From positions 1-35,231 of the IMG/VR virus record IMGVR_UViG_3300027798_002719: DNA of 35,231 bases, one strand, 5' to 3'. The notes under the pieces are model-generated. The model did no database searches and had not been told where the DNA came from. It worked only from the letters and a program-made list of their open reading frames with translations. This document shows, one piece after another, positions 1,186 to 29,692 of the stretch. The DNA is from a virus. Taxonomy: Duplodnaviria > Caudoviricetes. The translations under genes were made by a program, and so were the position numbers. The number at the start of each line of letters is the position of its first letter. The stretch's first letter is position 1.

Positions 1186-1800
1186 GTGGACCCAATTACA
1201 ATCGGACTTGCATTTTCAGCCGCTCAGTCTGCTGTAAGTTATATTAAACAAGCTGTTGCACTAGGCAAAGACATCAACAGTCTTGCAGGGCAATTCAGTA
1301 AGTTTTTTGAATCCTCAGATTCTATCCATCGTGAACGAACAAAGTTAAAAGCCAAAGCTAATCTACTGGGCAAAACAGATGCAGAGCTAGGTCACGAAGC
1401 ACTTCAAATTGCCATGCACAGTGATGCTCTACGTCAAGCAGAGCGCGAACTCAAAGACATGATTCTTTGGCAACTAGGCAAGCCACAAATCTGGGAACAA
1501 ATGATTGCCGAGCGTACTAGACTGTTCAAGGCACGTGCCGACGCCCAACGTGCAGAAGAAGAACGTGAATTAGCGCACAAGAAGAAAATGGCAGATCAAT
1601 TTATGTTTGGAATGTATTTTATAGCAGGGTCTGCTGTTGTGTTTGCAATTGCAATGGGAGGCGTTGGTATATACGGTGCAATGGAAGAAAAACGAATATA
1701 TGAAGAAAAGGTTGCCAAGAGACTCCTAGTTATACGTCAGCAACAAAAAGAACGTGATGCTCGAGAACAGAAAGAGCGTGAAGATTACGCTAAAAACTAA
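1186..1800 (+). CDS. phage coiled-coil membrane protein (MDP-start family)
   Basis: GTG start with AAGGAG RBS; N-terminal amphipathic helix, coiled coil, TM helix near the C-terminus. Confidence 0.75.
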   Translation: MDPITIGLAFSAAQSAVSYIKQAVALGKDINSLAGQFSKFFESSDSIHRERTKLKAKANLLGKTDAELGHEALQIAMHSDALRQAERELKDMILWQLGKPQIWEQMIAERTRLFKARADAQRAEEERELAHKKKMADQFMFGMYFIAGSAVVFAIAMGGVGIYGAMEEKRIYEEKVAKRLLVIRQQQKERDAREQKEREDYAKN

Positions 1801-1936: not shown

Positions 1937-2095
1937 ATGTTTGAATGGATCTTAATACTTGCACTAGCCAAGGAACCAGATATTAAAAAATGGCCTGAGT
2001 GGGAGTGTGTGCGATGGACTTGGTCAGGTGATGTGTATAATCGCAGAGTAGTTTGCTTGGAATGGAGAAAGCGGGAGAACCGATGGATCCCTTGA
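1937..2095 (+). CDS. small Trp-rich protein, 52 aa, with a Cys pair (WECVRWTWSGDVYNRRVVCLEW)
   Basis: Hand-translated; fills an operon gap; hydrophobic N-terminus. Confidence 0.6.
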   Translation: MFEWILILALAKEPDIKKWPEWECVRWTWSGDVYNRRVVCLEWRKRENRWIP

Positions 2096-2865
2096 CCCTT
2101 TTTGCATTGGCTAATGGAGCAGTCTCTGCTGTCAAGGCCGGCTGTAAACTTTACAAAGATATCAAAGGCGCGGCTGGCGATGTAAAGGATGTGATTAAAG
2201 ATCTCGATGCACAATTTCAAAAATTACATCCTCCAGAAAAACCGCCTACAGTAGCACAGAAAAATGCCTACATAGAAGAAAAAAATCGTGTAATTACGTT
2301 GAACAAACGAGCCAACGCAGATGACCATACTAGCATCTACACAGAGATCGGCAATCATCTTGGCACATACTATGATAATTTTTACAAATGCATGGCTGTG
2401 TTCGAAGTAGAGGAACGAAGGGCAAAGACTGAAGTTTACACAGGCGATGACAGTCTAGGCAAACGTGCTTTACAACGTGTGCTGATGCGTAAACAATTAC
2501 AACAAATGGAAGTTGAATTACGTGAACTAATGGTCTATCAAAGTCCTAAAGAACTGGGCGCATTGTACACTGAAGTAGAAGAAATGATGGCACAAATGGG
2601 TAAGGAACAAAAAGTCCTTATTACTCAACAAATGCAACGGCAAGCCATAGAAAACAAACGCAAGGCCGCAAAAAGAAAACAACTCAACATCCAGTTTGCT
2701 TGGGGGATAGGAGTATTGATTATAATCTTTTTTTTCTTTTTTATAATGATGTTGGTAGCACAGAGTCGACAGCAAATGTACCCACAATATGGTAATGGGT
2801 TCTTTCCAACATCTGAGGAAGAACGTCGCCGAGAAGCTCAGCCGCATGTTTATATAGGAAGGTAA
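2083..2865 (+). CDS. phage coiled-coil membrane protein, probable paralog of 1186..1800
   Basis: Start moved to ATG 2083 (MDPLTLFALANGAVSAVK, GGAG RBS); same architecture; LQQMEVELRELMVYQ resembles LRQAERELKDMILWQ. Confidence 0.75.
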   Translation: MDPLTLFALANGAVSAVKAGCKLYKDIKGAAGDVKDVIKDLDAQFQKLHPPEKPPTVAQKNAYIEEKNRVITLNKRANADDHTSIYTEIGNHLGTYYDNFYKCMAVFEVEERRAKTEVYTGDDSLGKRALQRVLMRKQLQQMEVELRELMVYQSPKELGALYTEVEEMMAQMGKEQKVLITQQMQRQAIENKRKAAKRKQLNIQFAWGIGVLIIIFFFFFIMMLVAQSRQQMYPQYGNGFFPTSEEERRREAQPHVYIGR

Positions 2866-9125: not shown

Positions 9126-9806
9126 TTATACTATTTCCGGGAACAGACATTCCTGGATAAAGTGTTGTACATCTTCCTCACTTAGCCCTAAACTGACCAT
9201 TACCCGCGGTGTATGGGGGTTGCATTTCTGATTTTGTGCGTAGTAGTTCTGCGCTAGTGTAGTATCTATTGCGGTGTTGTTTGTTTCAGAGACTGTGCTT
9301 AAATAGTGTGCAACAGTAGTTCTTGCTAGATTTGTAATTTGTTCTAGTTCTTCTGGATCTTGTACGTTGCCAGCGGCTACCATGCTTCCACTGAATATGT
9401 TAGTGGCCCACTCAGGTAAAGCACGTTCTTTGCGCCATTCTAGTTTGGCAACTTCATCGTGGAACCACTGCATCATAGGATGGTCAGCATCGCCTGCTTT
9501 TGAGTAATCGTGAAAACAGCCTGTGATCTTGTTCTTACCAGCAATAACATCAAAACCGTAAATCGGTGCTGGATTGTGAATGTGTGGAAAGATACAACAG
9601 TGCATCATCCATAGTCCTTTGCTTTCCCTAGCGTCCACTACATCAACGTGTGCCCTTCGATATGATTCGCTAGTCCATACACGATTGACCCAACCTGGTT
9701 GATTAAAGCGATCCATACCTGGCTCAAATATTTCCATGCCGGTTGCATCAAAACTTTCTTCTAACAGGGTTTGTATTTCAATCAATGTATCCCAGACTTT
9801 ACTCAT
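9126..9806 (-). CDS. ferredoxin-dependent bilin reductase (PcyX/PcyA-like)
   Basis: YRRAH, MMHCCIFP, PIYGFDVI, LPEWATNIFS and QKCNPHT motifs; adjacent to heme oxygenase. Confidence 0.88.
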   Translation of the reverse strand: MSKVWDTLIEIQTLLEESFDATGMEIFEPGMDRFNQPGWVNRVWTSESYRRAHVDVVDARESKGLWMMHCCIFPHIHNPAPIYGFDVIAGKNKITGCFHDYSKAGDADHPMMQWFHDEVAKLEWRKERALPEWATNIFSGSMVAAGNVQDPEELEQITNLARTTVAHYLSTVSETNNTAIDTTLAQNYYAQNQKCNPHTPRVMVSLGLSEEDVQHFIQECLFPEIV

Positions 9807-10347
9807 TGGGTACCAACGTCATCATTTCTTCAAATAATTTACCAGCATACCCGAAGCATACAATTGCTTCATCGGCTAAACTGTCATCTAATTTAGCACG
9901 TAGAATATTTTTAATAGTATCCGGTTCGTCGCCGAACTGATACATACGACCAGCACCTGGAACACGTTTAGCGATCATTTGTCCTCCAGATAAATCACCG
10001 AAGTGCCTAACATATAAATGTGCTAGTAACTTTTTAGGATCATCTTTAATGCTAAGAATGTATTCAATATATTCTTTAACTACTGGACATATATATGGTT
10101 GGTCGTTATCGTTGCCCCATAATTCTATAAAGTCTTCTAATATAGCAGGAGCTCTTCGAATAGCAGGGTAGTCACTCATCAAACCGTGTGGCATAGCACA
10201 TACTTCAAGTATTTCATAACACGGGTGCTGATTCTTAAGGAATGTTGCGTATAATTTAGGATCAATTTTGCCCGAAAATAAAACTTTTACAAACGGTTTA
10301 GTCTCTGCAGATTTGTGTGCTTCGTGCGTTAGATCTTTTAGGCTCAT
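9799..10347 (-). CDS. heme oxygenase (biliverdin-producing)
   Basis: LKDLTHEAHKSAE proximal His; AHLYVRHFGDLSGGQMI distal motif. Confidence 0.93.
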   Translation of the reverse strand: MSLKDLTHEAHKSAETKPFVKVLFSGKIDPKLYATFLKNQHPCYEILEVCAMPHGLMSDYPAIRRAPAILEDFIELWGNDNDQPYICPVVKEYIEYILSIKDDPKKLLAHLYVRHFGDLSGGQMIAKRVPGAGRMYQFGDEPDTIKNILRAKLDDSLADEAIVCFGYAGKLFEEMMTLVPNE

Positions 10348-10646
10348 TCTTCTTCCAATTTAATTTGTAATGGATATCCGTTAGTGCGGGATTGTGTAGT
10401 TGCCTCAACTGCTTTAGCTTCAGCAATTTCAAAACTATATATACCGGCAACACCGCTTCCAGTTTCATGTACAGTCAGCATGATGTCATGTGCTGTTTCA
10501 TGTGTATGTTTAAAGATCTCAATTAGTAAAGAAATTACAAACTCCATCGGAGTTGATTCGTCGTTTAGCAAAATAACTTTCCAGCGTTTTGGCTCGGATA
10601 CTGTTACTTTAATTTTTTCATCTAATTGGATATCAGTCGTTGACAT
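10344..10646 (-). CDS. clpS: ATP-dependent Clp protease adaptor
   Basis: WKVILLNDESTPMEFV, IMLTVHETG, YSFEIAEAK and YPLQ motifs; start moved to ATG 10646. Confidence 0.93.
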   Translation of the reverse strand: MSTTDIQLDEKIKVTVSEPKRWKVILLNDESTPMEFVISLLIEIFKHTHETAHDIMLTVHETGSGVAGIYSFEIAEAKAVEATTQSRTNGYPLQIKLEEE

Positions 10647-10664
10647 TATGTTCTCTTTCAAAGT

Positions 10665-10682
10665 GGGGGAGTTTCCTCCCCC
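10665..10682 (-). terminator. GC hairpin between hsp20 and clpS (terminator or 5' UTR stem)
   Basis: GGGGGAG-GAAA-CTCCCCC, followed only by ACTTT. Confidence 0.45.
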
Positions 10683-10688
10683 GGTTTA

Positions 10689-11114
10689 TTATTTAATCTC
10701 GATTTGACGAGGCTTCAATGCTTCTGGCACAAGACGCCGAATGTCAATTTGTAACATTCCGTTTTCTACCTTTGCACCTCGAACTTCCATGTACTCAGCA
10801 AGAGTAAATGTCTGTTCAAAATCGCGAGCTGCCAATCCACGATGCAAATACTCGATCCCAACATCTACGTTAGGACGATTCTTAATACCACGGATCGTCA
10901 GTTGGTCTTGATCCACTTCTACAGTGACTTCTTCTTTGGAGAAGCCTGCCACAGCAACTTCAATACCATAACTGTCATCACTATATTTTACAATATTATG
11001 TGGAGGATAGTTACCATTTTGGTGATGTGGCGCAGTAAAGTAGCGATCAAACCCTACTAGTGCTTTGCTCAGTTGTGCTAGAGCGGCTGTGTCAATTGTT
11101 CTTAATTGTGTCAT
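10689..11114 (-). CDS. small heat-shock protein Hsp20 (IbpA-like)
   Basis: NYPPHNI, EVAVAGF, YLHRGLAARDF and ENGML motifs. Confidence 0.95.
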   Translation of the reverse strand: MTQLRTIDTAALAQLSKALVGFDRYFTAPHHQNGNYPPHNIVKYSDDSYGIEVAVAGFSKEEVTVEVDQDQLTIRGIKNRPNVDVGIEYLHRGLAARDFEQTFTLAEYMEVRGAKVENGMLQIDIRRLVPEALKPRQIEIK

Positions 11115-11165
11115 TTTAGATCTCCTTATAGCAAGAACAGTTGTAGGACCCCGAAGGCATCCTAC
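11115..11165 (-). promoter_or_regulatory. ROSE-like RNA thermometer, hsp20 5' UTR
   Basis: Upstream hairpin, then UUCUUGCU pairing with the SD AGGAGA. Confidence 0.7.
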
Positions 11166-11179
11166 TTGTTTACATTATA

Positions 11180-13081
11180 TTACTTCTTTTCTGTAGGGTC
11201 AACTTCTTTGAAGCTAGCGTCTACAGTTTGTTCGCCTGAAGCATCGGCGTTTGATTTTGCTTGTTCAGCGGCTTGCTTTTTGGCAAACACTGAACTTGCG
11301 CTCTCAAATAGTTTTGAAACAGCTTCGTTAATCTTTTCTACATCTTCACCAGATACTGCTTCGGTTAGACTTGATTTAGCTGTTTCGTATGCTGTCTTTT
11401 CTTCTTCAGTTAATTGATCTTTAAATTCTTCAAAATCTTTATTAACTGAGTGTGCAGTACCTTCAGCTTGGTTACGTGCATTGATTAATTCTGCGGCTTT
11501 CTTATCTGACTCTGCATTTTCTTCAGCTTCTTGTACCATGCGTTGGATTTCAGCTTCAGTCAATCCACTATCAGATTTGATAGTAATCTTATTTTCTTTG
11601 CCAGTGTTTTTATCCTTGGCACTTACGTTAAGAATACCGTTGGCATCAATATCTAAGGTAACTTCAATTTGTGGTGTGCCACGCATTGCCGGAGCGATAC
11701 CTTCAAGATTGAATTCGCCTAGTAGTTTGTTGTACTTAAACAGTTCACGTTCACCTTGTGCAACTTTGATAGTTACAGCTGGTTGATTGTCTTCTGCTGT
11801 CGAGAACGTCTGTGAGTGTTTTGTTGGGATAGTCGTGTTCTTACCAATCAACTTGGTAAACACACCGCCCATTGTTTCAATGCCCAGTGTTAATGGAGTA
11901 ACGTCAAGTAACAACACGTCTGTCTTATCGCCTGATAATACAGCGCCTTGTATAGCGGCACCAGCGGCAACTGCTTCGTCTGGGTTTACATCTTTACGTG
12001 GAGCCTTGCCAAACAGTTTCTCAACTGCTTCTTGCACTTTGGGCATACGTGTTTGTCCACCAACTAAGATAACTTCGTCAATGTCTGCGGCAGTTACTTT
12101 AGCATCCTTCATGGCAATCTTACATGGCTCGATTGAACGCTCGATTAGTTTGTCAACCATTTGTTCAAACTTAGCACGAGTAATAGTTACATTCAAATGC
12201 TTAGGACCACTTGCATCTGCTGTGATATATGGCAAGTTGACTGCTGTTTGTTGTGTGCTCGACAGTTCAATCTTGGCCTTTTCAGCAGAGTCTTTCAAGC
12301 GTTGCAATGCTAACATATCTTGTTTAAGATCGATGCCGCTTTCCTTCTTGAACTCTTCAACTAGGTGATCCATGATAACTTGGTCAAAGTCTTCACCGCC
12401 TAGGAATGTGTCACCGTTTGTTGATAAAACTTCAATTTGCTTGTCGCCATCAATGTTGGCAATTTCAATAATAGAGATATCAAATGTACCACCGCCCAAG
12501 TCGTATACCGCAATCTTGCGATCACGCTTGTCTTGTTTGTCTACACCGTAGGCCAGTGCGGCGGCGGTTGGCTCGTTAATAATACGTAGCACTTCTAAGC
12601 CAGCGATACGCCCTGCATCTTTAGTTGCTTGACGCTGGCTATCATTAAAGTAGGCAGGAACTGTAATTACAGCCTGTGTTACTTCTTTACCTAGATAGTC
12701 TTCAGCAGTCTTTTTCATTTTGCGAAGTACTTCAGCTGACACTTGTTGTGGCGCTAGTTTTTCTCCATTTGCCTCAATCCATGCATCACCATTGTCTGCT
12801 CGGACAATACCGTAAGGCATCAAGTCAATGTCTTTTTGCACTTCCTTCTCGTCAAACTTACGTCCAATAAGGCGCTTGCTTGCGTAGATAGTATTCTTTG
12901 GATTTGTGACTGCTTGTCGTTTTGCTGTTGCACCTACTAAGATTTCGTCTTTAGTATATGCAATGATTGATGGTGTTGTTCTAGCACCTTCGCTGTTTTC
13001 AATTACTTTAGCAATTCCATTTTCTAAGATTGCTACACAGCTATTTGTTGTACCTAAATCGATACCGATGATTTTGCTCAT
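11180..13081 (-). CDS. dnaK: chaperone DnaK (Hsp70)
   Basis: [17 protein letters not shown] and [11 protein letters not shown] signatures; full length, 633 aa. Confidence 0.98.
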
Positions 13082-13135
13082 ATTGTTCTCCTTTAATTAA
13101 GCAAGAATATTGTAAACCCTTTACGGCGTCTACAA
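13082..13135 (-). promoter_or_regulatory. ROSE-like RNA thermometer, dnaK 5' UTR
   Basis: Upstream hairpin, then UUCUUGCUU pairing with AAGGAGAA; TAAATA at 13139..13144. Confidence 0.65.
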
Positions 13136-13141
13136 TTTTAT

Positions 13142-13432
13142 TTATCCCGAGATAATCTCTTCGTTAAAAATATTTGACCATTTTTTAAGTTTTTCTATTT
13201 TGGCTAGTTTTGCGGATTCTAACGTTTCTTCGTTTATAACCCCCATGTTTAGCAGTATGTCTACCATAGCTAACAAGTCTCCTAGTTCTTCTTCTAGGTG
13301 TTCACAGTTAGTTTTGGGCTTGCCCGGCTTTAAATTATCTAGTCCAAACCTATGACATTTACTAACTGCTTGTATTACTTCTGCACATTCTTCACTTAGA
13401 ATGTTCATTACTTCTCTTTCTCGATTATTCAT
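13142..13432 (-). CDS. MazG-like NTP pyrophosphohydrolase
   Basis: EECAE...EELGD metal-binding motif. Confidence 0.8.
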   Translation of the reverse strand: MNNREREVMNILSEECAEVIQAVSKCHRFGLDNLKPGKPKTNCEHLEEELGDLLAMVDILLNMGVINEETLESAKLAKIEKLKKWSNIFNEEIISG

Positions 13433-13435
13433 ATA

Positions 13436-14020
13436 TTACCTTTGATTTGCAAATGGTGCGATATAATCGCCTGCGCTTGTTGTGCTAGTTCGTAATGTGT
13501 TATAAACATTTTGAATGCCCACTGCTTGATTCCAAGCATCTTGCAATGCGTGGTGAGCTGTTACTGGCGGACGTTGTGGATTAATACCTAAGTCGAATGC
13601 TGTACGCACATCACGCACTTCCCAGAATTTCCAAGGAACTGCACGATTAACTTTTTTAAATACATGTTCACAAATTACAATATCGAAACAACTGCCGTTG
13701 GACCAAACTCTTTTAGCACCCCAACAAAATTTATACAGTTGTTCAAACGCATCTCGAATATGTATTCTATCGTCCGTATTAAACGCTTCTTCTTGGGCTT
13801 CTTTACTTTGATTGGCCCACCAAGCAATCGTATCGTCATTGGTAACTAATCCAATTTCGTCACAACTATCAAGATCAACTCGTACATAAAACGGAGTCAT
13901 TGATGGCTCTTGAGCTTCTCTACCAAACGGATCAAATTTTACAGCGCCTATGGTAAGAATGGCGGCATCCGTAGATGTCGCCAATGTTTCTAAGTCAATC
14001 ATAATATCTGTATTTGCCAT
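13436..14020 (-). CDS. DEDDh 3'-5' exonuclease (Rv2179c-like)
   Basis: DIMIDLET, WSNGSCFD, RDVRT and HHALQDA motifs. Confidence 0.88.
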   Translation of the reverse strand: MANTDIMIDLETLATSTDAAILTIGAVKFDPFGREAQEPSMTPFYVRVDLDSCDEIGLVTNDDTIAWWANQSKEAQEEAFNTDDRIHIRDAFEQLYKFCWGAKRVWSNGSCFDIVICEHVFKKVNRAVPWKFWEVRDVRTAFDLGINPQRPPVTAHHALQDAWNQAVGIQNVYNTLRTSTTSAGDYIAPFANQR

Positions 14021-14048
14021 GTAAGCTCTTTCTTTATTGTGAACTTAC

Positions 14049-14077
14049 ATTGTAACAGATTTATAATTCTATGTCAA
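14049..14077 (-). promoter_or_regulatory. sigma70-like promoter
   Basis: TTGACA-17 nt-TACAAT. Confidence 0.7.
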
Positions 14078-14307
14078 TACATTTTCTTAGGTAAACTTTC
14101 TTTTTCGAGCTTCTTGCGCCAACGAGCTCGGGCCGCACCTTTTTTACGTTTGCGTTCTGTCGTTGGTTTTTCGTAAAATTCTTTGGCACGTAATATGTCC
14201 AACGTTCCAGCTTCCTCGATTTTCTTTTTAAATCGTCGTAACGCTGAATTTATATTTTCACCGTCTTTAACAGTAACACCTGTTCCGACTTTCTTATTCT
14301 GAATCAT
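14074..14307 (-). CDS. rpsU: ribosomal protein bS21 homolog
   Basis: VKDGENINSALRRFKKK...KEFYEKPTTERKRKK; start placed at the ATG 8 nt after GAGGA. Confidence 0.92.
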   Translation of the reverse strand: MIQNKKVGTGVTVKDGENINSALRRFKKKIEEAGTLDILRAKEFYEKPTTERKRKKGAARARWRKKLEKESLPKKMY

Positions 14308-14710
14308 CTGCATCATCCTCTTCTTCGTCTTGGTTTTGAATTTGTTCTACAATGAAATCTAAATCCCAAATTCTATTTTTAGATATCAAATTGTATGGCG
14401 TAATTTCATCGTTAGTTATATAGTGTGCATTAGGTTGCGATATCATAAATGTAATAAACTGTTTAGTAACCGGATCACAATTGTCAACGTCAATTATAAC
14501 TACATCAGTTTGGTGACAAATACTCAGTAACCAACTAGTATCGTTATCGTTTTGATCATATATGAACACATTCAAATCATCTATGCTTTTGCTTAGAATT
14601 GCTTGAAACTGCTGTTTAACATGATTAGACGGTTTAACTAACAAGTAACTTAGTGTTAGGTTAAAAAGTTTATCAGGCGGCGTTATTACTGTTATTTTTC
14701 CTAAGTTCAT
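14294..14710 (-). CDS. hypothetical protein
   Basis: 138-aa ORF in the operon, acidic tail. Confidence 0.7.
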   Translation of the reverse strand: MNLGKITVITPPDKLFNLTLSYLLVKPSNHVKQQFQAILSKSIDDLNVFIYDQNDNDTSWLLSICHQTDVVIIDVDNCDPVTKQFITFMISQPNAHYITNDEITPYNLISKNRIWDLDFIVEQIQNQDEEEDDADDSE

Positions 14711-14945
14711 AAATCCTACTTACAAAGTATTCTATTTTGTCTGTTGTATAGTTACTAAACTTAGGACCTTTATTCTTTGTTTCATCAACAAACTTAGCCA
14801 ATTCTGGATCAGTTGTTGCATCTACTTCTAAAGTATCAAAAACTTTCGCTCCATACAACTTATATAATTCATCTCTTGGTCGAGCATTTGATCTACTAAT
14901 TATCTTAGACCAAATTGTTTCTTCACCTTGCTCGGCGTTTTGCAC
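14673..14945 (-). CDS. probable -1 frameshift extension of 14951..16174
   Basis: Weak GTG start; frame is open back to the A9G run at 15005..15014. Confidence 0.6.
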   Translation of the reverse strand: MQNAEQGEETIWSKIISRSNARPRDELYKLYGAKVFDTLEVDATTDPELAKFVDETKNKGPKFSNYTTDKIEYFVSRIYELRKNNSNNAA

Positions 14946-14950
14946 ATATC

Positions 14951-16174
14951 CTACGATCGGTTCTTGACTTGAATGTGTCTCGTCTCGTCCTTCGTCATAT
15001 AAGTCTTTTTTTTTGAATCTTCTGGTTCAATTACTTCTGTAAAGTCTGGCTTAATTCTATCGCCTGTTACTGCTGAATAGTTTTCAGGGATATATTTTTG
15101 GGCCTCTGCTTCTATAATTTCTTGTTTTTCTTGTTGTATTGCCTGTTCAGCCTCTTCAATCATCTTGTTCCATTGTTCAAGCGGTATGTCTTCTACCGTT
15201 TCTACTGGCTTTTCCTCCGTTGCTGTTATATCACCTCCTAGTGCAGTCAACGGTGTTTCGCTTGGAACTTCTTCTGTGTGTGTTTGTTTGATTTCTTCTT
15301 CAGGAATATATTCTTGTGGTTGGGGCACAAAATCATTGATGCTTACAGGTACTGGTTCTGTTACGGGAGTTTCAGTATGTGGTACTGTATTATGTAAAAG
15401 ATGTTTGTCATCCTCTTCCCTTTTCCAACCAAATGTCATTTGTGCGGCCAACAGCATAATAACTGCTAATGGATCAAATACAATAACAATAAGGATAATA
15501 ATCCATGTTACTGCTCGTTCCAGCATGTTTTCATCTGCGCCATGGTCGCCGTAGATAAACTTGGCAATGTATTTTATTGGCCCAACTTCGGCCTCGACCT
15601 TGCGTACTTCTGCCGCGATTGGAGCACGCTCTTGGCTAACTGCGGCAATAGTTTTCTGTTCGGCTGTGATCTCAGACTGAAGCCTTGCACGTTCCTTTTG
15701 CTGACTACGTCTAATTTGAACTGCTTTCTCGGCACCTTTTTCATCACTGCTTCGGCCCATGACCTGGTCCACAGCTTCATCCATCTGTTTAAGAGCTTTA
15801 CGGTTTGCATCTATATTGTCTTTGCTTGTTTTAATCTTTTCGTCATAGATAGCAATCTTACTTTGAACATCGCCACTTACTAGATTTTGGTCGTTGTGTG
15901 CTTTTGAAAGGAATCCAAAAATACCCATCGAGGTAATAATCATTAACACAACTACTGAAATGATCATGTAGTATTTTATAAAACGTGGAGCACGTTCCCA
16001 GTTAGCTTTGAGCCAGCTAGCACATACTAGTTTGCCAATCTCTAGGGCTGATCCCATAATAATAATTGGAATTACTGCCGCAGAGAATATTGCGGTCAAA
16101 CCTACTACTGAATAGTAGATTGCGACCGCAGATATTATTAATCCAGTAAGAAGTAGTAACCAGGCTAAAATCAT
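14951..16174 (-). CDS. multi-TM coiled-coil membrane protein with acidic tail
   Basis: Three N-terminal TM helices, TSMGIFGFLSKAH, coiled coil, EVGPIKYIA, IVFDPLA. Confidence 0.8.
   Translation of the reverse strand: MILAWLLLLTGLIISAVAIYYSVVGLTAIFSAAVIPIIIMGSALEIGKLVCASWLKANWERAPRFIKYYMIISVVVLMIITSMGIFGFLSKAHNDQNLVSGDVQSKIAIYDEKIKTSKDNIDANRKALKQMDEAVDQVMGRSSDEKGAEKAVQIRRSQQKERARLQSEITAEQKTIAAVSQERAPIAAEVRKVEAEVGPIKYIAKFIYGDHGADENMLERAVTWIIILIVIVFDPLAVIMLLAAQMTFGWKREEDDKHLLHNTVPHTETPVTEPVPVSINDFVPQPQEYIPEEEIKQTHTEEVPSETPLTALGGDITATEEKPVETVEDIPLEQWNKMIEEAEQAIQQEKQEIIEAEAQKYIPENYSAVTGDRIKPDFTEVIEPEDSKKKTYMTKDETRHIQVKNRS
15005..15018 (-). other. slippery site ATTCAAAAAAAAAG (contains A_AAA_AAG)
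   Basis: In-frame TCA AAA AAA AAG; the -1 frame reads through to 14673. Confidence 0.7.
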
Positions 16175-18484: not shown

Positions 18485-18811
18485 TTATACTCGAAAACTT
18501 TCCCCGCAACCGCAACGGTCACGTTCGTTTGGATTGATGAAATCAAAACCTTCATTTAGTCCGTTGCGGACCCAATCCATTGTTAAGCCATTTAGATAGG
18601 CTAGACTTTTGGCATCTACTAGCACTACAAAATCTTTTTGGGCAAAATTAGTAACGCCGGCTTCTGCGGTGTACTCATCTACATATTCTATAGTGTATGC
18701 TAGTCCACTACATCCTGTAGTTCTTACACCTAGTCGAATGCCTGCGCCTTTACCACGACGCTCTAAATTCTGCTTGATTTTTTTATAAGCTGTGTCGGTT
18801 ACGGTAATCAT
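18485..18811 (-). CDS. iscA: Fe-S cluster A-type carrier
   Basis: TTGCSGLAY and CGCGESF motifs. Confidence 0.95.
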   Translation of the reverse strand: MITVTDTAYKKIKQNLERRGKGAGIRLGVRTTGCSGLAYTIEYVDEYTAEAGVTNFAQKDFVVLVDAKSLAYLNGLTMDWVRNGLNEGFDFINPNERDRCGCGESFRV

Positions 18812-19166
18812 TTACGGCCGCTTTGATAGCATCTTCTGCCAATATACTGCAATGTATCTTTACAGGAGGTAAGGCTAGCTCTTCGGCAATTTGACTATTT
18901 TTAAGATTAACAGCATCATCAATATGCATGCCTTTAACCCATTCTGTAACAAGACTTGAACTGGCAATTGCTGAACCGCAGCCATAAGTTTTAAATTTGG
19001 CATCTGTAATAACACCATCTTCGCCTACTTTTATTTGCAATTTCATCACATCGCCGCAAGCAGGGGCACCAACCATACCAGTACCAATACTAGGATCACT
19101 CTTATCAAAAGATCCAACGTTCCTGGGATTTTCATAGTGGTCGATGACCTTGTCGCTGTATGCCAT
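18783..19166 (-). CDS. iscU: Fe-S cluster scaffold
   Basis: DHYENPRNVG, APACGD, GCGSAIASS and LPPVKIHCS motifs. Confidence 0.97.
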   Translation of the reverse strand: MAYSDKVIDHYENPRNVGSFDKSDPSIGTGMVGAPACGDVMKLQIKVGEDGVITDAKFKTYGCGSAIASSSLVTEWVKGMHIDDAVNLKNSQIAEELALPPVKIHCSILAEDAIKAAVNDYRNRHSL

Positions 19167-19181
19167 ACTGTATTTATATTA

Positions 19182-19376
19182 TTATTTTACTTCTTTACGA
19201 GCGTTTTTAACTGCGGTAACATCGTTACGAGTTTCTTTGCACAACTTGGCCAAATCTTGACAATGTTTACGAACACGGGTGCCGGCGGCGCCAACTTCCT
19301 TGTCATAAAACTTTTCAAAGTCTGCTTCCATTGCTTCTACGATTGCTGTGAATTCTGCGTGTTTGTTTGTAGCCAT
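19182..19376 (-). CDS. histone H1-like (Hc1-type) small protein
   Basis: DFEKFYDK...AAGTRVRK...LAKLCKETR pattern. Confidence 0.7.
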   Translation of the reverse strand: MATNKHAEFTAIVEAMEADFEKFYDKEVGAAGTRVRKHCQDLAKLCKETRNDVTAVKNARKEVK

Positions 19377-19416
19377 TTTATTAATCCTTTATATGAAGTA
19401 CAGAGTACTTATACCT

Positions 19417-19445
19417 AGTGTACAGGGGTTAAAAATAAATGTCAA
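19417..19445 (-). promoter_or_regulatory. sigma70-like promoter
   Basis: TTGACA-17 nt-TACACT. Confidence 0.65.
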
Positions 19446-19693
19446 CCAACATTGGCGAATACAGTTGTGCTACTCGAACTGATACTTTGGCCGTCTGCGA
19501 TAATGTCGGCCTCTCTTGCCATTGGCTTATCGTTTACAAAAACGGTTGTAGATCCTTGAGCAACAACAAGACCTGTAGCAGTAATTGAGCCTTCATGGGC
19601 TACTTTTTTATTTTCGATATAAGTGTCAATTGATCCAGAAATGATCATGTGTTGACTCGCCGAATCGATATCACAACGTGCTACGCCTGGCAT
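19442..19693 (-). CDS. PAAR-like spike-tip protein
   Basis: MPGVAR start; repeated GS.TVFVN.KP.AR..D units; ends SSTTVFAN. Confidence 0.8.
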   Translation of the reverse strand: MPGVARCDIDSASQHMIISGSIDTYIENKKVAHEGSITATGLVVAQGSTTVFVNDKPMAREADIIADGQSISSSSTTVFANVG

Positions 19694-27874: not shown

Positions 27875-27903
27875 AGTATACACTAACTTACGCTAACTGT
27901 CAA
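27875..27903 (-). promoter_or_regulatory. sigma70-like promoter
   Basis: TTGACA-17 nt-TATACT; the ATG lies only 8 nt downstream. Confidence 0.75.
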
Positions 27904-27906
27904 CAA

Positions 27907-28200
27907 TTATTTGCCTAATTTAGTTGCACGTTTAGCCATTTTTTCCATTTCGTTTGGCTGTGGAGTACCTTTTTCAACTTGTTTTGCTTTATTGGCTGTT
28001 TTGATAACTAGGCCGTGGCTATCATAACGATCCACAATGGATTTTAACACAGGGTCACTATCCCAACGTGCGGCAAATCTGTCATAGTCTATTGCTGGAG
28101 CACCCATCTTAGCACTAGCGGCAGCTAGTGCTCGCCACGTCATTGTGGCTTCTGAACCTTTACGGTTGGCTGCTGATTGAAGAGCCCTTAGTGTTGCCAC
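27907..28200 (-). CDS. probable -1 frameshift extension of 28221..29207
   Basis: GTG start without an RBS; frame is open back to the A9G run at 28224..28233. Confidence 0.6.
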   Translation of the reverse strand: MATLRALQSAANRKGSEATMTWRALAAASAKMGAPAIDYDRFAARWDSDPVLKSIVDRYDSHGLVIKTANKAKQVEKGTPQPNEMEKMAKRATKLGK

Positions 28201-28220
28201 TAAGGGATCGATTGATTCAT

Positions 28221-29207
28221 TTACTTTTTTTTTGAATTTAACAACATGCCTAGACGTCTGCTGTAATCTACTGATTCGCGTTTTTCTCTGCCTGTCTCTG
28301 CCGCTGGAGGCATAGCTGTTTCTTCTTCGCCTTCTGCGCCTGGCATTGGAGGTGCCATTGAATCTAATTCTGCGCCCATGTCTTCTGCTCCTGCATCCAT
28401 TCCGCCTAGTGGTGCGCCCATTGTTGGAGCCTGTTCACCTGAGACAATTGCTAGTGCGCCTGACAAGCCTTGACGACTTGTTTCTAATGCTGTATAAATT
28501 GCTTCCAATGCTGGCTTAACGGCACTATTGTACTGTTGGGCTACATCGCTGCCTTGTTGTTTTCCTATGGAATCTACTAGTTCTAGCAACTGTTCTGCCT
28601 TCATAGCGGCTACATCTTCTAACCAGCCTGTAATACGATCAACCATATCCTTGGTTGCCATGATAATCTCAGCCTTGTCTTCTTCGCCTTCTAATAACAT
28701 CCAGCTAGCTTGTGATTCATTTAAGTCATAACGTAATTGTAGTTCTGCCTTAAGTTCTTCGCGATCGCTTTCGCCTAATTGGATTCTATTGATAGCTGAT
28801 TCAATCCAGCTGTCAGGTACTGCAAATCTGCTTGCACGATTACGGATGAATGATGCGTATACTGTGCTTTCTGTTTTCATTGTTTCTTCGTCCTTTTCAT
28901 CACATTCGCATGGATCTTTATGGCAATCAGAGCAAGTATCATCATCTGTACTTTCTTCGCGTTCCATGATCTCTTGATTGATACAGTCTAAGAACATGCG
29001 TGTCTTTTGATAGTCTGGGCTTTCTAGCACAGAATCAAAACTTTCGCTTAATTCAAACTGGCTAATCTTCGTACGAAGTTTGTTACGTGCATCTTCAAGC
29101 TGTTCTGTAGTGAACTGCTCTAGGTTAATTTTGTAACCAAACTTCTTTGCTAGGCTCTCGTTGAGTGCTTTAGCTGTAACGGGTTGTGATAACTCTCTAA
29201 TTTGCAT
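28221..29207 (-). CDS. acidic helical late protein, probable prohead core/internal protein
   Basis: MQIREL start; repeated LxES motifs; M/P/A/G/E-rich linker; TATAAATA at 29234..29241. Confidence 0.6.
   Translation of the reverse strand: MQIRELSQPVTAKALNESLAKKFGYKINLEQFTTEQLEDARNKLRTKISQFELSESFDSVLESPDYQKTRMFLDCINQEIMEREESTDDDTCSDCHKDPCECDEKDEETMKTESTVYASFIRNRASRFAVPDSWIESAINRIQLGESDREELKAELQLRYDLNESQASWMLLEGEEDKAEIIMATKDMVDRITGWLEDVAAMKAEQLLELVDSIGKQQGSDVAQQYNSAVKPALEAIYTALETSRQGLSGALAIVSGEQAPTMGAPLGGMDAGAEDMGAELDSMAPPMPGAEGEEETAMPPAAETGREKRESVDYSRRLGMLLNSKKK
28224..28237 (-). other. slippery site ATTCAAAAAAAAAG (contains A_AAA_AAG)
   Basis: TCA AAA AAA AAG TAA; the -1 frame reads through to 27907. 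Confidence 0.75.
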
Positions 29208-29236
29208 GATCTATTCCTAGAATTCTTATTATGTAT

Positions 29237-29692
29237 TTATACGAAACTCCACTTAAACATTCTGGAAATCTGCTCCTTGAAATGTTGTGTTTTGTATTCT
29301 GTATCTTCTAACTTATTTAACAAAATTATATACCTATCGAGATCTTTAGCTGTTTTAATATTCTTTTTGTAAACTTGTAAATCTGAATGATTAGCCCAGT
29401 ATCGATTATCTAATTGTTTAATCTCAAAGAACTTTGTCAGCTGTAGACTATTATACGATTTTGCTGCCATTAATGCACAGGTTTTGAGATAGTATTCTTC
29501 AATTAGATGTTTGCTACCGTGATTGTAAAGTCCCCAGTTGCCTGTTTTAAGCTGTCTAACAAGATACTTTTTATATACTATACCGCCGTCGGGTAAAACT
29601 GTAACGGGTAGTTGCTTGTTAAATTCGTTAGCAAATTGCTCTGCTAAATCCTTAACTGCTATCTTCTTATGTTTTTTATTTGTATTTTTCAT
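29237..29692 (-). CDS. basic hypothetical protein
   Basis: 151-aa ORF in the operon. Confidence 0.7.
   Translation of the reverse strand: MKNTNKKHKKIAVKDLAEQFANEFNKQLPVTVLPDGGIVYKKYLVRQLKTGNWGLYNHGSKHLIEEYYLKTCALMAAKSYNSLQLTKFFEIKQLDNRYWANHSDLQVYKKNIKTAKDLDRYIILLNKLEDTEYKTQHFKEQISRMFKWSFV

Follow-up and report, generated by a model that had tools for sequence, protein, structure and literature searches.

A conserved nine-adenine junction joining a late, probably virion-associated protein to a start-less extension in uncultured giant phages: a candidate site of transcriptional slippage

In this work, we analyzed a 35,231-nucleotide (nt) stretch of DNA (hereafter the window) from an uncultured giant lake phage of the Caudoviricetes (IMG/VR record IMGVR_UViG_3300027798_002719, positions 1 to 35,231), and specifically a run of nine adenines (A9) that closes the gene for a 328-residue protein (site 1) and recurs near the end of an unrelated gene for a 407-residue protein (site 2); counts are named by these sites throughout. 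An initial annotation had proposed that a programmed switch into the -1 frame at both sites yields short and long isoforms of late phage proteins. Our results support this proposal for a late, probably virion-associated protein, a designation that rests on a late-type promoter in 52/52 loci and on the detection of the counterparts from phage CBB in virions. We regard it as practically certain that the frame switch is real and selected, and we lean, with little more than even confidence, towards slippage of the RNA polymerase on the A run as the main route to the fusion.

A frame switch at the end of the 328-residue protein gene

The features of site 1 are as follows.

28221..29207, minus strand: gene for the 328-residue helical protein (short isoform), phrog_14154 virion structural protein family
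29234..29241, minus strand: presumed T4-type late promoter motif TATAAATA, 34 nt 5' of the ATG of this gene
28224..28235, minus strand: slip site 1, TC, A9 (28233..28225) and G, read TCA AAA AAA AAG, with the TAA stop (28223..28221) directly after it
27907..28224, minus strand: start-less -1 frame extension of 105 residues, a predicted winged-helix-like domain of about 80 residues and a flexible tail ending MAKRAT
28216..28224, minus strand: V-N-E opening the extension, a predicted site for a T4-type prohead protease
28185..28206, minus strand: conserved RNA hairpin with a 9-base-pair (bp) core and a GCAA loop, 14-17 nt after AAG

As initially annotated, the gene ends AAT TCA AAA AAA AAG TAA (A9 at 28233..28225, G at 28224), and its -1 frame is continuous with the downstream open reading frame (ORF), giving a product of 433 residues where about 433 had been estimated. 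This frame reads KKKVNESIDPLVATLRALQSAANRK... to a stop at 27907, that is, KKKVNESIDPLVATLR..., with 105 residues beyond the lysines. The downstream ORF had been described as 97 residues long and devoid of a Shine-Dalgarno (SD) sequence, and indeed no SD-like 4-mer precedes any start codon in its first 40 codons; the same holds throughout the 53 loci compared, window included (0/53), and in 9/53 the extension contains no ATG, GTG or TTG at all within its first 40 codons. The peptides VNESIDPLVATLR and SIDPLVATLR are encoded upstream of its first possible start. The xNES-type motif noted at the junction was recovered as [VIL]-x-E within the first 8 residues of the extension in 53/53 loci. V-N-E fits the xxE motif of T4-type prohead protease sites and is a predicted site of this kind, and a gene for a protease of this type (S77) is present in 3/5 related records, including both of the near-complete ones (2/2).

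Conservation, which the initial annotation had proposed as a check, was found in two sets of loci: a close set of 80 viral loci plus the window, reduced to 60 unique over 600 nt (several counts being made on 53 loci), and a distant set of 62 unique junctions, seeded by a distant protein. All 60 close loci end [TC]CA AAA AAA AA[GAC] TAA, and in all 60 the -1 frame is open for 100-122 residues and the +1 frame is shut within 5 codons. In 56 of the 62 distant junctions an A8-A10 run is followed by a -1 frame matching the extension profile; four of the remainder are run-less with a TAATG-overlapped gene, and in two the extension is a gene apart, started by an ATG of its own; one of these two (L348) shows only A6G, with AGGA upstream. 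The closest database proteins end in SKKK or SKKN in 120/120 cases. A pattern with free run length gave 120 matches in metagenome contigs (the window itself, 21 unrelated and 98 of the family), and the register was the same in 98/98 family loci; an alignment-seeded scan of viral contigs returned nearly the same loci again, plus three new junctions, all with the run. Assembled contigs from five RNA runs and one DNA run bridge the site with A9, and a pattern search of viral contigs for a genomic A10G fusion gave three matches, all unrelated. The alignment of the extension contains invariant residues and is conserved from the junction onwards, ahead of every possible start; past the stop, indel lengths are divisible by three. 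This conservation, the indels in threes and the in-frame equivalents found in relatives (see below) indicate a trans-frame product under selection, and we infer from the sequences that the fusion protein is made.

The initial annotation saw no strong downstream hairpin at either site, which is correct for site 2 (z -0.3 and -0.8) but not for site 1, where a 9-bp stem (-17 kcal/mol, z -4.45, 0/200 shuffles) lies about 10 nt past the stop. Across loci, z fell below -2 against synonymous shuffles in 44/53, compared with 11, 0 and 3 of 53 in control windows. The stem was paired at 69% versus 32-46% when slid, with 52 double changes versus 23.6, although the count for this named stem is favored by its having been taken from the same alignment; RNAalifold returned no consensus structure on the 53 junctions, and several lineages probably use a different stem. 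The spacer has a median of 13 nt (mostly 10-23 nt, range 1-32 nt; 17/53 loci at 11-14 nt) and the loop sequence varies. Post-stop structure is weaker in the distant set (25/56) and absent from the four TAATG-coupled loci. The hairpin resembles the ribosome termination structure (PMC7518266) as a stable, selected structure just past a stop, at the edge of the terminating ribosome. The latter is known from a synthetic operon and genome statistics, whereas the site-1 hairpin overlaps a coding frame and its role is a presumed one. In such a role it would keep terminating ribosomes from re-initiating, so that the domain would be made only as a fusion.

The extension in related phages and the second site

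The 328-residue protein matches phrog_14154, a head-and-packaging family, over its C-terminal half only (E 2.7e-10, residues 169-317), and its AlphaFold model is all-helical (predicted local distance difference test, pLDDT, 71; predicted template-modelling score 0.31). Its gene adjoins an exonuclease gene downstream and does not lie within a tail operon. TAAATA lies 29-39 nt 5' of the gene in 52/52 loci examined, and this motif, like TATAAATA, is of the T4 late promoter type. Sequence marks of a T4-type internal head or core protein are present (late promoter motif, predicted xxE site and gp21-like protease gene), and the head core identity first suggested for the 328-residue protein is plausible. 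The extension was modelled with a pLDDT of 72 and a topology that fits a three-helix bundle with a beta wing. Its best structural match is a winged helix (Z 5.7, root-mean-square deviation 3.1, 68 aligned), a weak match that shows no function, and its top matches are mostly winged helices, yet within the range expected of common arrangements. Foldseek gave no match at E<=0.001, the ESM Atlas only unnamed viral clusters, and PHROGs no match to the extension.

A tblastn search with the 328-residue protein found no cultured phage, and with the distant protein used as a seed the only match was to a segment inserted in cyanophages. We arrived at the cultured counterparts by way of the neighboring exonuclease gene: in Rak2-like phages, two genes precede the same exonuclease (CBB_298/299, RaK2 ORF135/136, XbC2_294/295 and 121Q gp27/28). 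XbC2_294 and RaK2 ORF135 match the profile of the 328-residue protein (E 7e-11 and 4e-8), CBB_298 and RaK2 ORF135 share phrog_14154 with it, and a profile-profile comparison with CBB_298 gave a probability of 90 (E 1.7e-6). The gene pair is thus like site 1 in its order before the exonuclease and in the homology of its first gene to the C-terminal half of the 328-residue protein, and unlike it in consisting of two genes with their own starts and in having no A-run link at the RaK2 and XbC2 junctions. For the second gene of the pair the evidence is less favorable: the extension matched XbC2_295 and RaK2 ORF136 weakly in hidden Markov model searches (E 6e-4 and 3e-3, in a set of 13 proteins), and CBB_299 (phrog_15050) in hhalign with a probability of only 1.9 (E 0.025). 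The putative homology of the extension to CBB_299 is weak by sequence and relies in part on the gene order. Both CBB_298 and CBB_299 were detected in purified CBB virions, with 10 and 2 peptides, respectively (PMC5259590, Table 4); the data given there concern association with the virion and assign no position within the head.

The gene is organized in further ways among uncultured relatives. In four of them the extension is a gene of its own, in three cases behind an intervening gene, and such stand-alone genes start with M-[KR]-[IF]-x-[DE], like other late genes here. Three run-less relatives (L301-L303) carry a 95-130-residue Ala/Gly/Gln-rich gene with an M-R-L-x-[DE] start between the main and the winged-helix-like genes. 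In-frame fusions through SKKK or PKKK are found in P0122, in P0176 and in the P0155 cluster (7 members, contigs up to 109 kb), although the DNA behind the P0155 fusion was not found in viral or metagenome contigs. Separate-gene, overlapped-gene, putatively slip-joined and in-frame-fused states all occur among the relatives.

The features of site 2 are as follows.

14951..16174, minus strand: gene for the 407-residue membrane/coiled-coil protein, with a sub-threshold Pfam match only
15005..15016, minus strand: slip site 2, TC, A9 (15014..15006) and G, 17 codons before the 0-frame stop
14673..15005, minus strand: -1 arm of 110 residues with the motif YVQNxEQ..LW.[KR]I; long isoform of 500 residues

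The N-terminal 60% of the 407-residue protein has homologues in cultured large phages. The two sites had been said to have the same outcome. Both do enter the -1 frame, but at site 1 the stop is immediate, whereas at site 2 a tail of 17 residues alternates with an arm of 110 (407 versus 500 residues in total). A set of 81 site-2 loci, 5 of them truncated, was reduced to 52 unique ones. In 44/52, an A8-A9 run stands about 20 codons before the stop, followed by a conserved 0-frame tail and by a -1 arm with YVQNxEQ..LW.[KR]I. The rest depart from this layout. In L151, L154 and L158 the run is A10, the long arm continues in frame and the short tail is read in +1; L110, L113 and L124 are run-less and encode both a tail-like segment and the arm, in tandem and in a single frame; two further loci have a different C-terminus. 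The arm motif is in frame in L110, L113, L124, L151 and L154 (E 1e-10 to 4e-15) and in L638. In this last locus (G016, 333060-333070, minus strand), the site-2 gene carries A9 in another phase and encodes the arm in frame, and its two remaining frames stay open for only 15 or 2 residues; this may be a third arrangement, in which slipping would produce the short form. The +1 tails of L151 and L154 resemble the usual tail (0/500 and 6/500 shuffles as good), and 10/17 of the differences between them fall at third positions of the +1 frame. A profile of the usual tail, in turn, matched L154 (E 0.001) and gave no match to L151, a point that counts against the argument from reversed polarity.

An identical 14-mer, ATTCAAAAAAAAAG, had been reported in the same reading phase at both sites, 13 kb apart, and an exact scan recovers it twice in the window, both times on the minus strand (28237..28224 and 15018..15005), where 0.0015 occurrences are expected from base composition; these are also the only A9 runs in the window. 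Its identity overstates the shared element, however, since its first two bases vary among homologues at both sites. What the sites have in common is a bare TC-A9-G, with TC before the run in 51/53 close and 53/56 distant site-1 loci and in 40/44 site-2 loci, a preference that rests on these family counts and on 11 A9 runs in four records. Downstream of the run, selection on structure is seen at site 1, whereas site 2 lacks structure (3/44). The sites are gained or lost independently: one record (G010) combines the run at site 2 with a stand-alone extension at site 1. The proposal of one reused recoding cassette does not survive these differences in flanks and 3' structure, the independence of the sites and the occurrence of the motif in unrelated phage genes. 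Nor does tuning in trans by the ribosomal protein bS21, whose gene is present in 10/10 related records tested, that is, in 6/6 with the site-1 run and in 4/4 without it.

Surveys of A9 runs give no wider recoding system inside these genomes. In four records examined in full (956 kb), the two sites make up nearly all genic runs of at least nine A, with one more that has no open -1 frame; in four other records, 11 A9 runs comprise four at site 1, one in the site-2 gene and six with no sign of recoding. The scan for TCA AAA AAA AAG near gene ends, also suggested initially, was run as a motif-first sampling of some 1,200 viral stretches: TCA9GTAA gave 113 unique matches, of which 50 belong to the site-1 family, 25 end other ORFs and 38-39 are not at an ORF end. 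At 17 of the 25 other ORF ends, some of them tail-chaperone-like, the -1 frame is open for at least 45 residues. Ten short ORFs (L394, L401, L411, L417, L437, L439, L444, L451, L483 and L502) end in TCA AAA AAA AAG TAA, with the motif at about 601-615 or 301-335 and 52-117 residues open in the -1 frame; two of them match tail or tail-chaperone PHROGs (L437, phrog_344; L502, a tail protein). Four long ORFs without a PHROGs match (L409, L418, L429 and L472) have the same motif at their ends, 83-149 residues in the -1 frame and a V-x-E-like start, and are candidates for further families using the site.

Routes to the fusion protein

We propose that the host RNA polymerase would sometimes add an extra A while copying A9, and that ordinary translation of the resulting A10 transcripts would give the 433-residue fusion beside the 328-residue protein. 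The long form would carry the winged-helix-like domain into the head as a sub-stoichiometric passenger, and the prohead protease could free it there at V-N-E. The independent A9 at site 2 would act in the same way on a membrane protein unrelated to the first, selecting one of two C-terminal arms. Since insertion of one A and a -1 ribosomal shift yield the same peptide, only indirect evidence separates them. In favor of the polymerase, the run measures A8-A10 in all 116 run-dependent site-1 junctions (60 close and 56 distant) and in 44/44 at site 2. The floor at A8, together with the fact that the sole A6G locus (L348) has its own start, indicates that length and not the heptamer is invariant; indeed, C or T follows the run, so that no A_AAA_AAG is formed, in 9/60 close and 12/56 distant loci. 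The E. coli RNA polymerase is reported not to slip below 8 A's (PMC6260861), and slippage on 9 A/T has been described as efficient, with one or several bases added (PMC5009743). One of the six RNA runs yielded a 272-nt contig (X18, depth 7.6) identical to the window except for A11. The +1 tail at site 2 lies beyond the reach of a -1 ribosomal signal, and the reversed polarity therefore favors the polymerase. An SD-like 4-mer lies upstream in only 1/53 site-1 and 6/44 site-2 loci. One related phage (G001) encodes tRNA-Lys(CUU), and this tRNA has been proposed to disfavor shifting on A_AAA_AAG in Thermus. The remaining coding sequence of G001 contains 8 A8 runs versus 26 expected and 3 runs of A9 or longer versus 15 expected, and in-frame A_AAA_AAG 13 times versus 26 expected. 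No gene for a phage RNA polymerase beta subunit was found in any of five related records (5/5), two of them near-complete.

Several observations count against this route. The A11 contig is single, encodes an unproductive frame and may reflect slippage of the reverse transcriptase or of the polymerase chain reaction, and no A10 RNA contig was seen. The reversed polarity would require loss of an A, and one study with the E. coli polymerase recorded no deletion slippage on the poly(A) runs that it tested (PMC6260861). A second related phage (G002, 72% complete) encodes only tRNA-Lys(UUU). AAG ends the run in 46/53 close loci, and G follows it in 44/56 distant and 44/44 site-2 loci, while AAG accounts for 37% of lysine codons in the window; this preference for G recreates A_AAA_AAG, the best bacterial ribosomal shift site. 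The polymerase has not yet transcribed the selected 3' hairpin when it copies the run, so that the hairpin cannot influence it, the same 15-mer ends tail-assembly-chaperone-like genes, and, as seen above, A9 runs occur in other genes without a sign of recoding.

These points bear directly on ribosomal -1 frameshifting, which we judge the less probable explanation, though one with a substantial chance: two tRNA-Lys would slip on A_AAA_AAG or A_AAA_AAA to give the same fusion peptide, SKKKV, aided at site 1 by pausing at the stop next to the run, with a possible contribution from the 3' hairpin, and possibly in coexistence with polymerase slippage. An in-frame X_XXY_YYZ heptamer is present (A_AAA_AAG at both sites of the window, A_AAA_AAA or A_AAA_AAC in other loci), the predominant form being the most shift-prone heptamer in E. 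coli; A_AAA_AAG, A_AAA_AAA and A_AAA_AAC are depleted elsewhere in frame, but A_AAA_AAT is not. The selected hairpin and the recurrence of the motif in tail-chaperone-like pairs also fit, and some phage shifts are described as needing no stimulator. On the other hand, the heptamer requires neither the extra AAA codon nor the A of TCA, yet both are kept, AAC and AAA endings recur in several lineages, and the stimulators expected of such a signal are scarce: a 3' stem stands 5-9 nt from the heptamer in 5/53 site-1 loci only and none is seen at site 2, an internal SD sequence is as rare as stated above, and the +1 polarity at site 2 is contrary to a -1 shift. Sliding of ribosomes, moreover, is reported to be robust only on runs of A11 or longer, with little of it on A9 and A10 (PMC4363877). 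In a variant, which corresponds to the tuning in trans first suggested, the hairpin some 13 nt downstream would be bound by a phage protein that adjusts the ratio in the course of infection, as in cardioviruses. Such binding would suit the median spacer, the 17/53 loci at 11-14 nt (the range quoted for arterivirus and cardiovirus shifting) and the selection on the hairpin. We consider it improbable, as spacers extend from 1 to 32 nt, the loop sequence is not conserved, structure weakens in distant loci (25/56) and is absent at site 2, and bS21 does not track the run.

Two explanations dispense with a programmed fusion. Re-initiation by translational coupling, with the A run as a mere lysine tail, finds some precedent in the TAATG overlap, in the same -1 register, of 4/62 distant loci and of L306, and in an ATG at that place in 2/53 close loci. 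It is nonetheless very unlikely to apply in general: no start is present in the first 40 codons of 9/53 loci and an SD sequence in none, conservation starts at the junction, ahead of any start, KKK is encoded as AAA AAA AAN in every locus, a pattern rare elsewhere, and the loci with their own start lack the run. Phase variation at the DNA level or a homopolymer sequencing error might be suspected because homopolymers are error-prone and in-frame fused proteins exist in databases. This explanation, which has scarcely any probability left, was largely refuted and set aside: none of the 98 metagenome family loci is out of register, no homologue with A10G was among the three viral-contig matches, independent DNA and RNA contigs bridge the run as A9, 120/120 close proteins end in SKKK or SKKN, and site 2 is conserved too.

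Genomic setting, known systems and significance

The window is part of a large tailed phage genome with nrdAB, DnaK, bS21 and T4-like late motifs, and genomes of related phages reach 356-365 kb. No intrinsic terminator was found near the site-1 junction. A near-perfect sigma-70 promoter (11/12; 27875..27903, minus strand) lies right after the stop of the extension and faces the exonuclease gene, so that the late gene abuts an early-type unit. Elsewhere in the window we observed the following.

9126..10347, minus strand: heme oxygenase (PF01126) adjoining a ferredoxin-dependent bilin reductase (PF05996), a phage bilin-synthesis pair
10344..14316, minus strand: host-like cluster of ClpS, Hsp20, full-length DnaK, a MazG-like protein, a 3'-5' exoribonuclease and bS21
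18485..19693, minus strand: consecutive IscA-like and IscU/NifU-like Fe-S proteins, a histone H1-like Hc1 domain and a PAAR protein, with a late-type promoter motif of the IscU gene at 19178
1186..1800 and 2053..2865, plus strand: two membrane/coiled-coil proteins that look related, have N-termini resembling each other (DP[IL]T..A) and match nothing in Pfam

In the region from 22770 to 18486, three RNA runs contain contigs of related phages that join the end of nrdA straight to the IscA-like gene, a different gene order. Both G001 and G002 gave a call for a two-piece-type tmRNA (tmRNA*; L174 19507..19923 and L187 13270..13686) and about 30 tRNAs, including a tRNA-Ile(UAU) call of unusual length.

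Site 1 was initially put forward as an undescribed system; this claim cannot be upheld, since both candidate mechanisms are already known. Programmed transcriptional slippage on A/T runs of 9-11 is documented for Thermus thermophilus dnaX, Shigella spa13 and mxiE, and Citrobacter tssM (PMC5009743, PMC6260861, PMC3711429). Slippage of the Thermus dnaX type shares with site 1 the nine-A run, the two products per gene and the possibility of several extra bases or of either direction, whereas the genes concerned here are late ones of a tailed phage, the short form at site 1 comes from the unslipped transcript, and the candidate case is known from sequences and contigs. In gene 10 of T7/T3 and in Lactobacillus phage A2 and Listeria phages A118, A500 and PSA, a frame change near the gene end likewise adds a C-terminal domain to a fraction of a virion protein, and its direction, or even an in-frame fusion, varies among relatives. 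At site 1, in contrast, the added domain is predicted to be winged-helix-like where the others are Ig-like, its carrier is neither a major capsid nor tail protein, relatives encode the domain as a gene of its own, and the junction is followed by a protease-like site. In tail assembly chaperone genes, the textbook route is ribosomal -1 shifting. The G/GT pair of the lambda family has its -1 shift beside the stop of the first ORF, and an identical TCA AAA AAA AAG TAA ends chaperone-like genes; the carrier here, however, belongs to a head-and-packaging family and precedes an exonuclease gene, and is not a short ORF between the major tail and tape measure genes. With E. coli dnaX and the IS3 family, finally, site 1 shares an in-frame A_AAA_AAG in most loci and a 3' stem-loop, but it differs in having no upstream SD sequence, a spacer of mostly 10-23 nt and no heptamer in about one fifth of site-1 loci, and there is no structure at site 2.

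Our search of the open-access literature found no description of this site, of the gene family or of slippage in jumbo phages, and the word "frameshift" is absent from the CBB (PMC5259590) and RaK2 papers. Site 1 is thus a deeply conserved recoding site of a known type in a gene family for which we found no description. Our analysis adds the series of four states tied to virion proteins of cultured phages, the reversal of polarity in some site-2 loci, the hairpin past the site-1 stop and an RNA contig with A11.

In its broadest form, our proposal is that a large clade of uncultured jumbo phages uses polymerase stuttering on A9 as a general and reversible gene-joining switch, by which a virion gene lost its start and became a cleavable head passenger and the polarity was flipped at a second gene. 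We advance this tentatively, as a possibility somewhat short of an even chance. If true, programmed transcriptional slippage would have a natural example among the tailed phages, where we found none described, and all evolutionary stages would still be extant. Frameshifts in phages are usually ascribed to the ribosome, and an A9 site occurring with both polarities offers a direct test for programmed polymerase slippage in tailed phages; the identical motif in tail-chaperone-like genes suggests that some of these may need the same test. The site-1 family is abundant (50/113 unique matches in the motif-first sample), and gene callers miss the start of its extension. Here a gene pair is seen moving between separate, coupled, slip-joined and fused states, and the cultured phages CBB, RaK2 and 121Q are available for functional tests.

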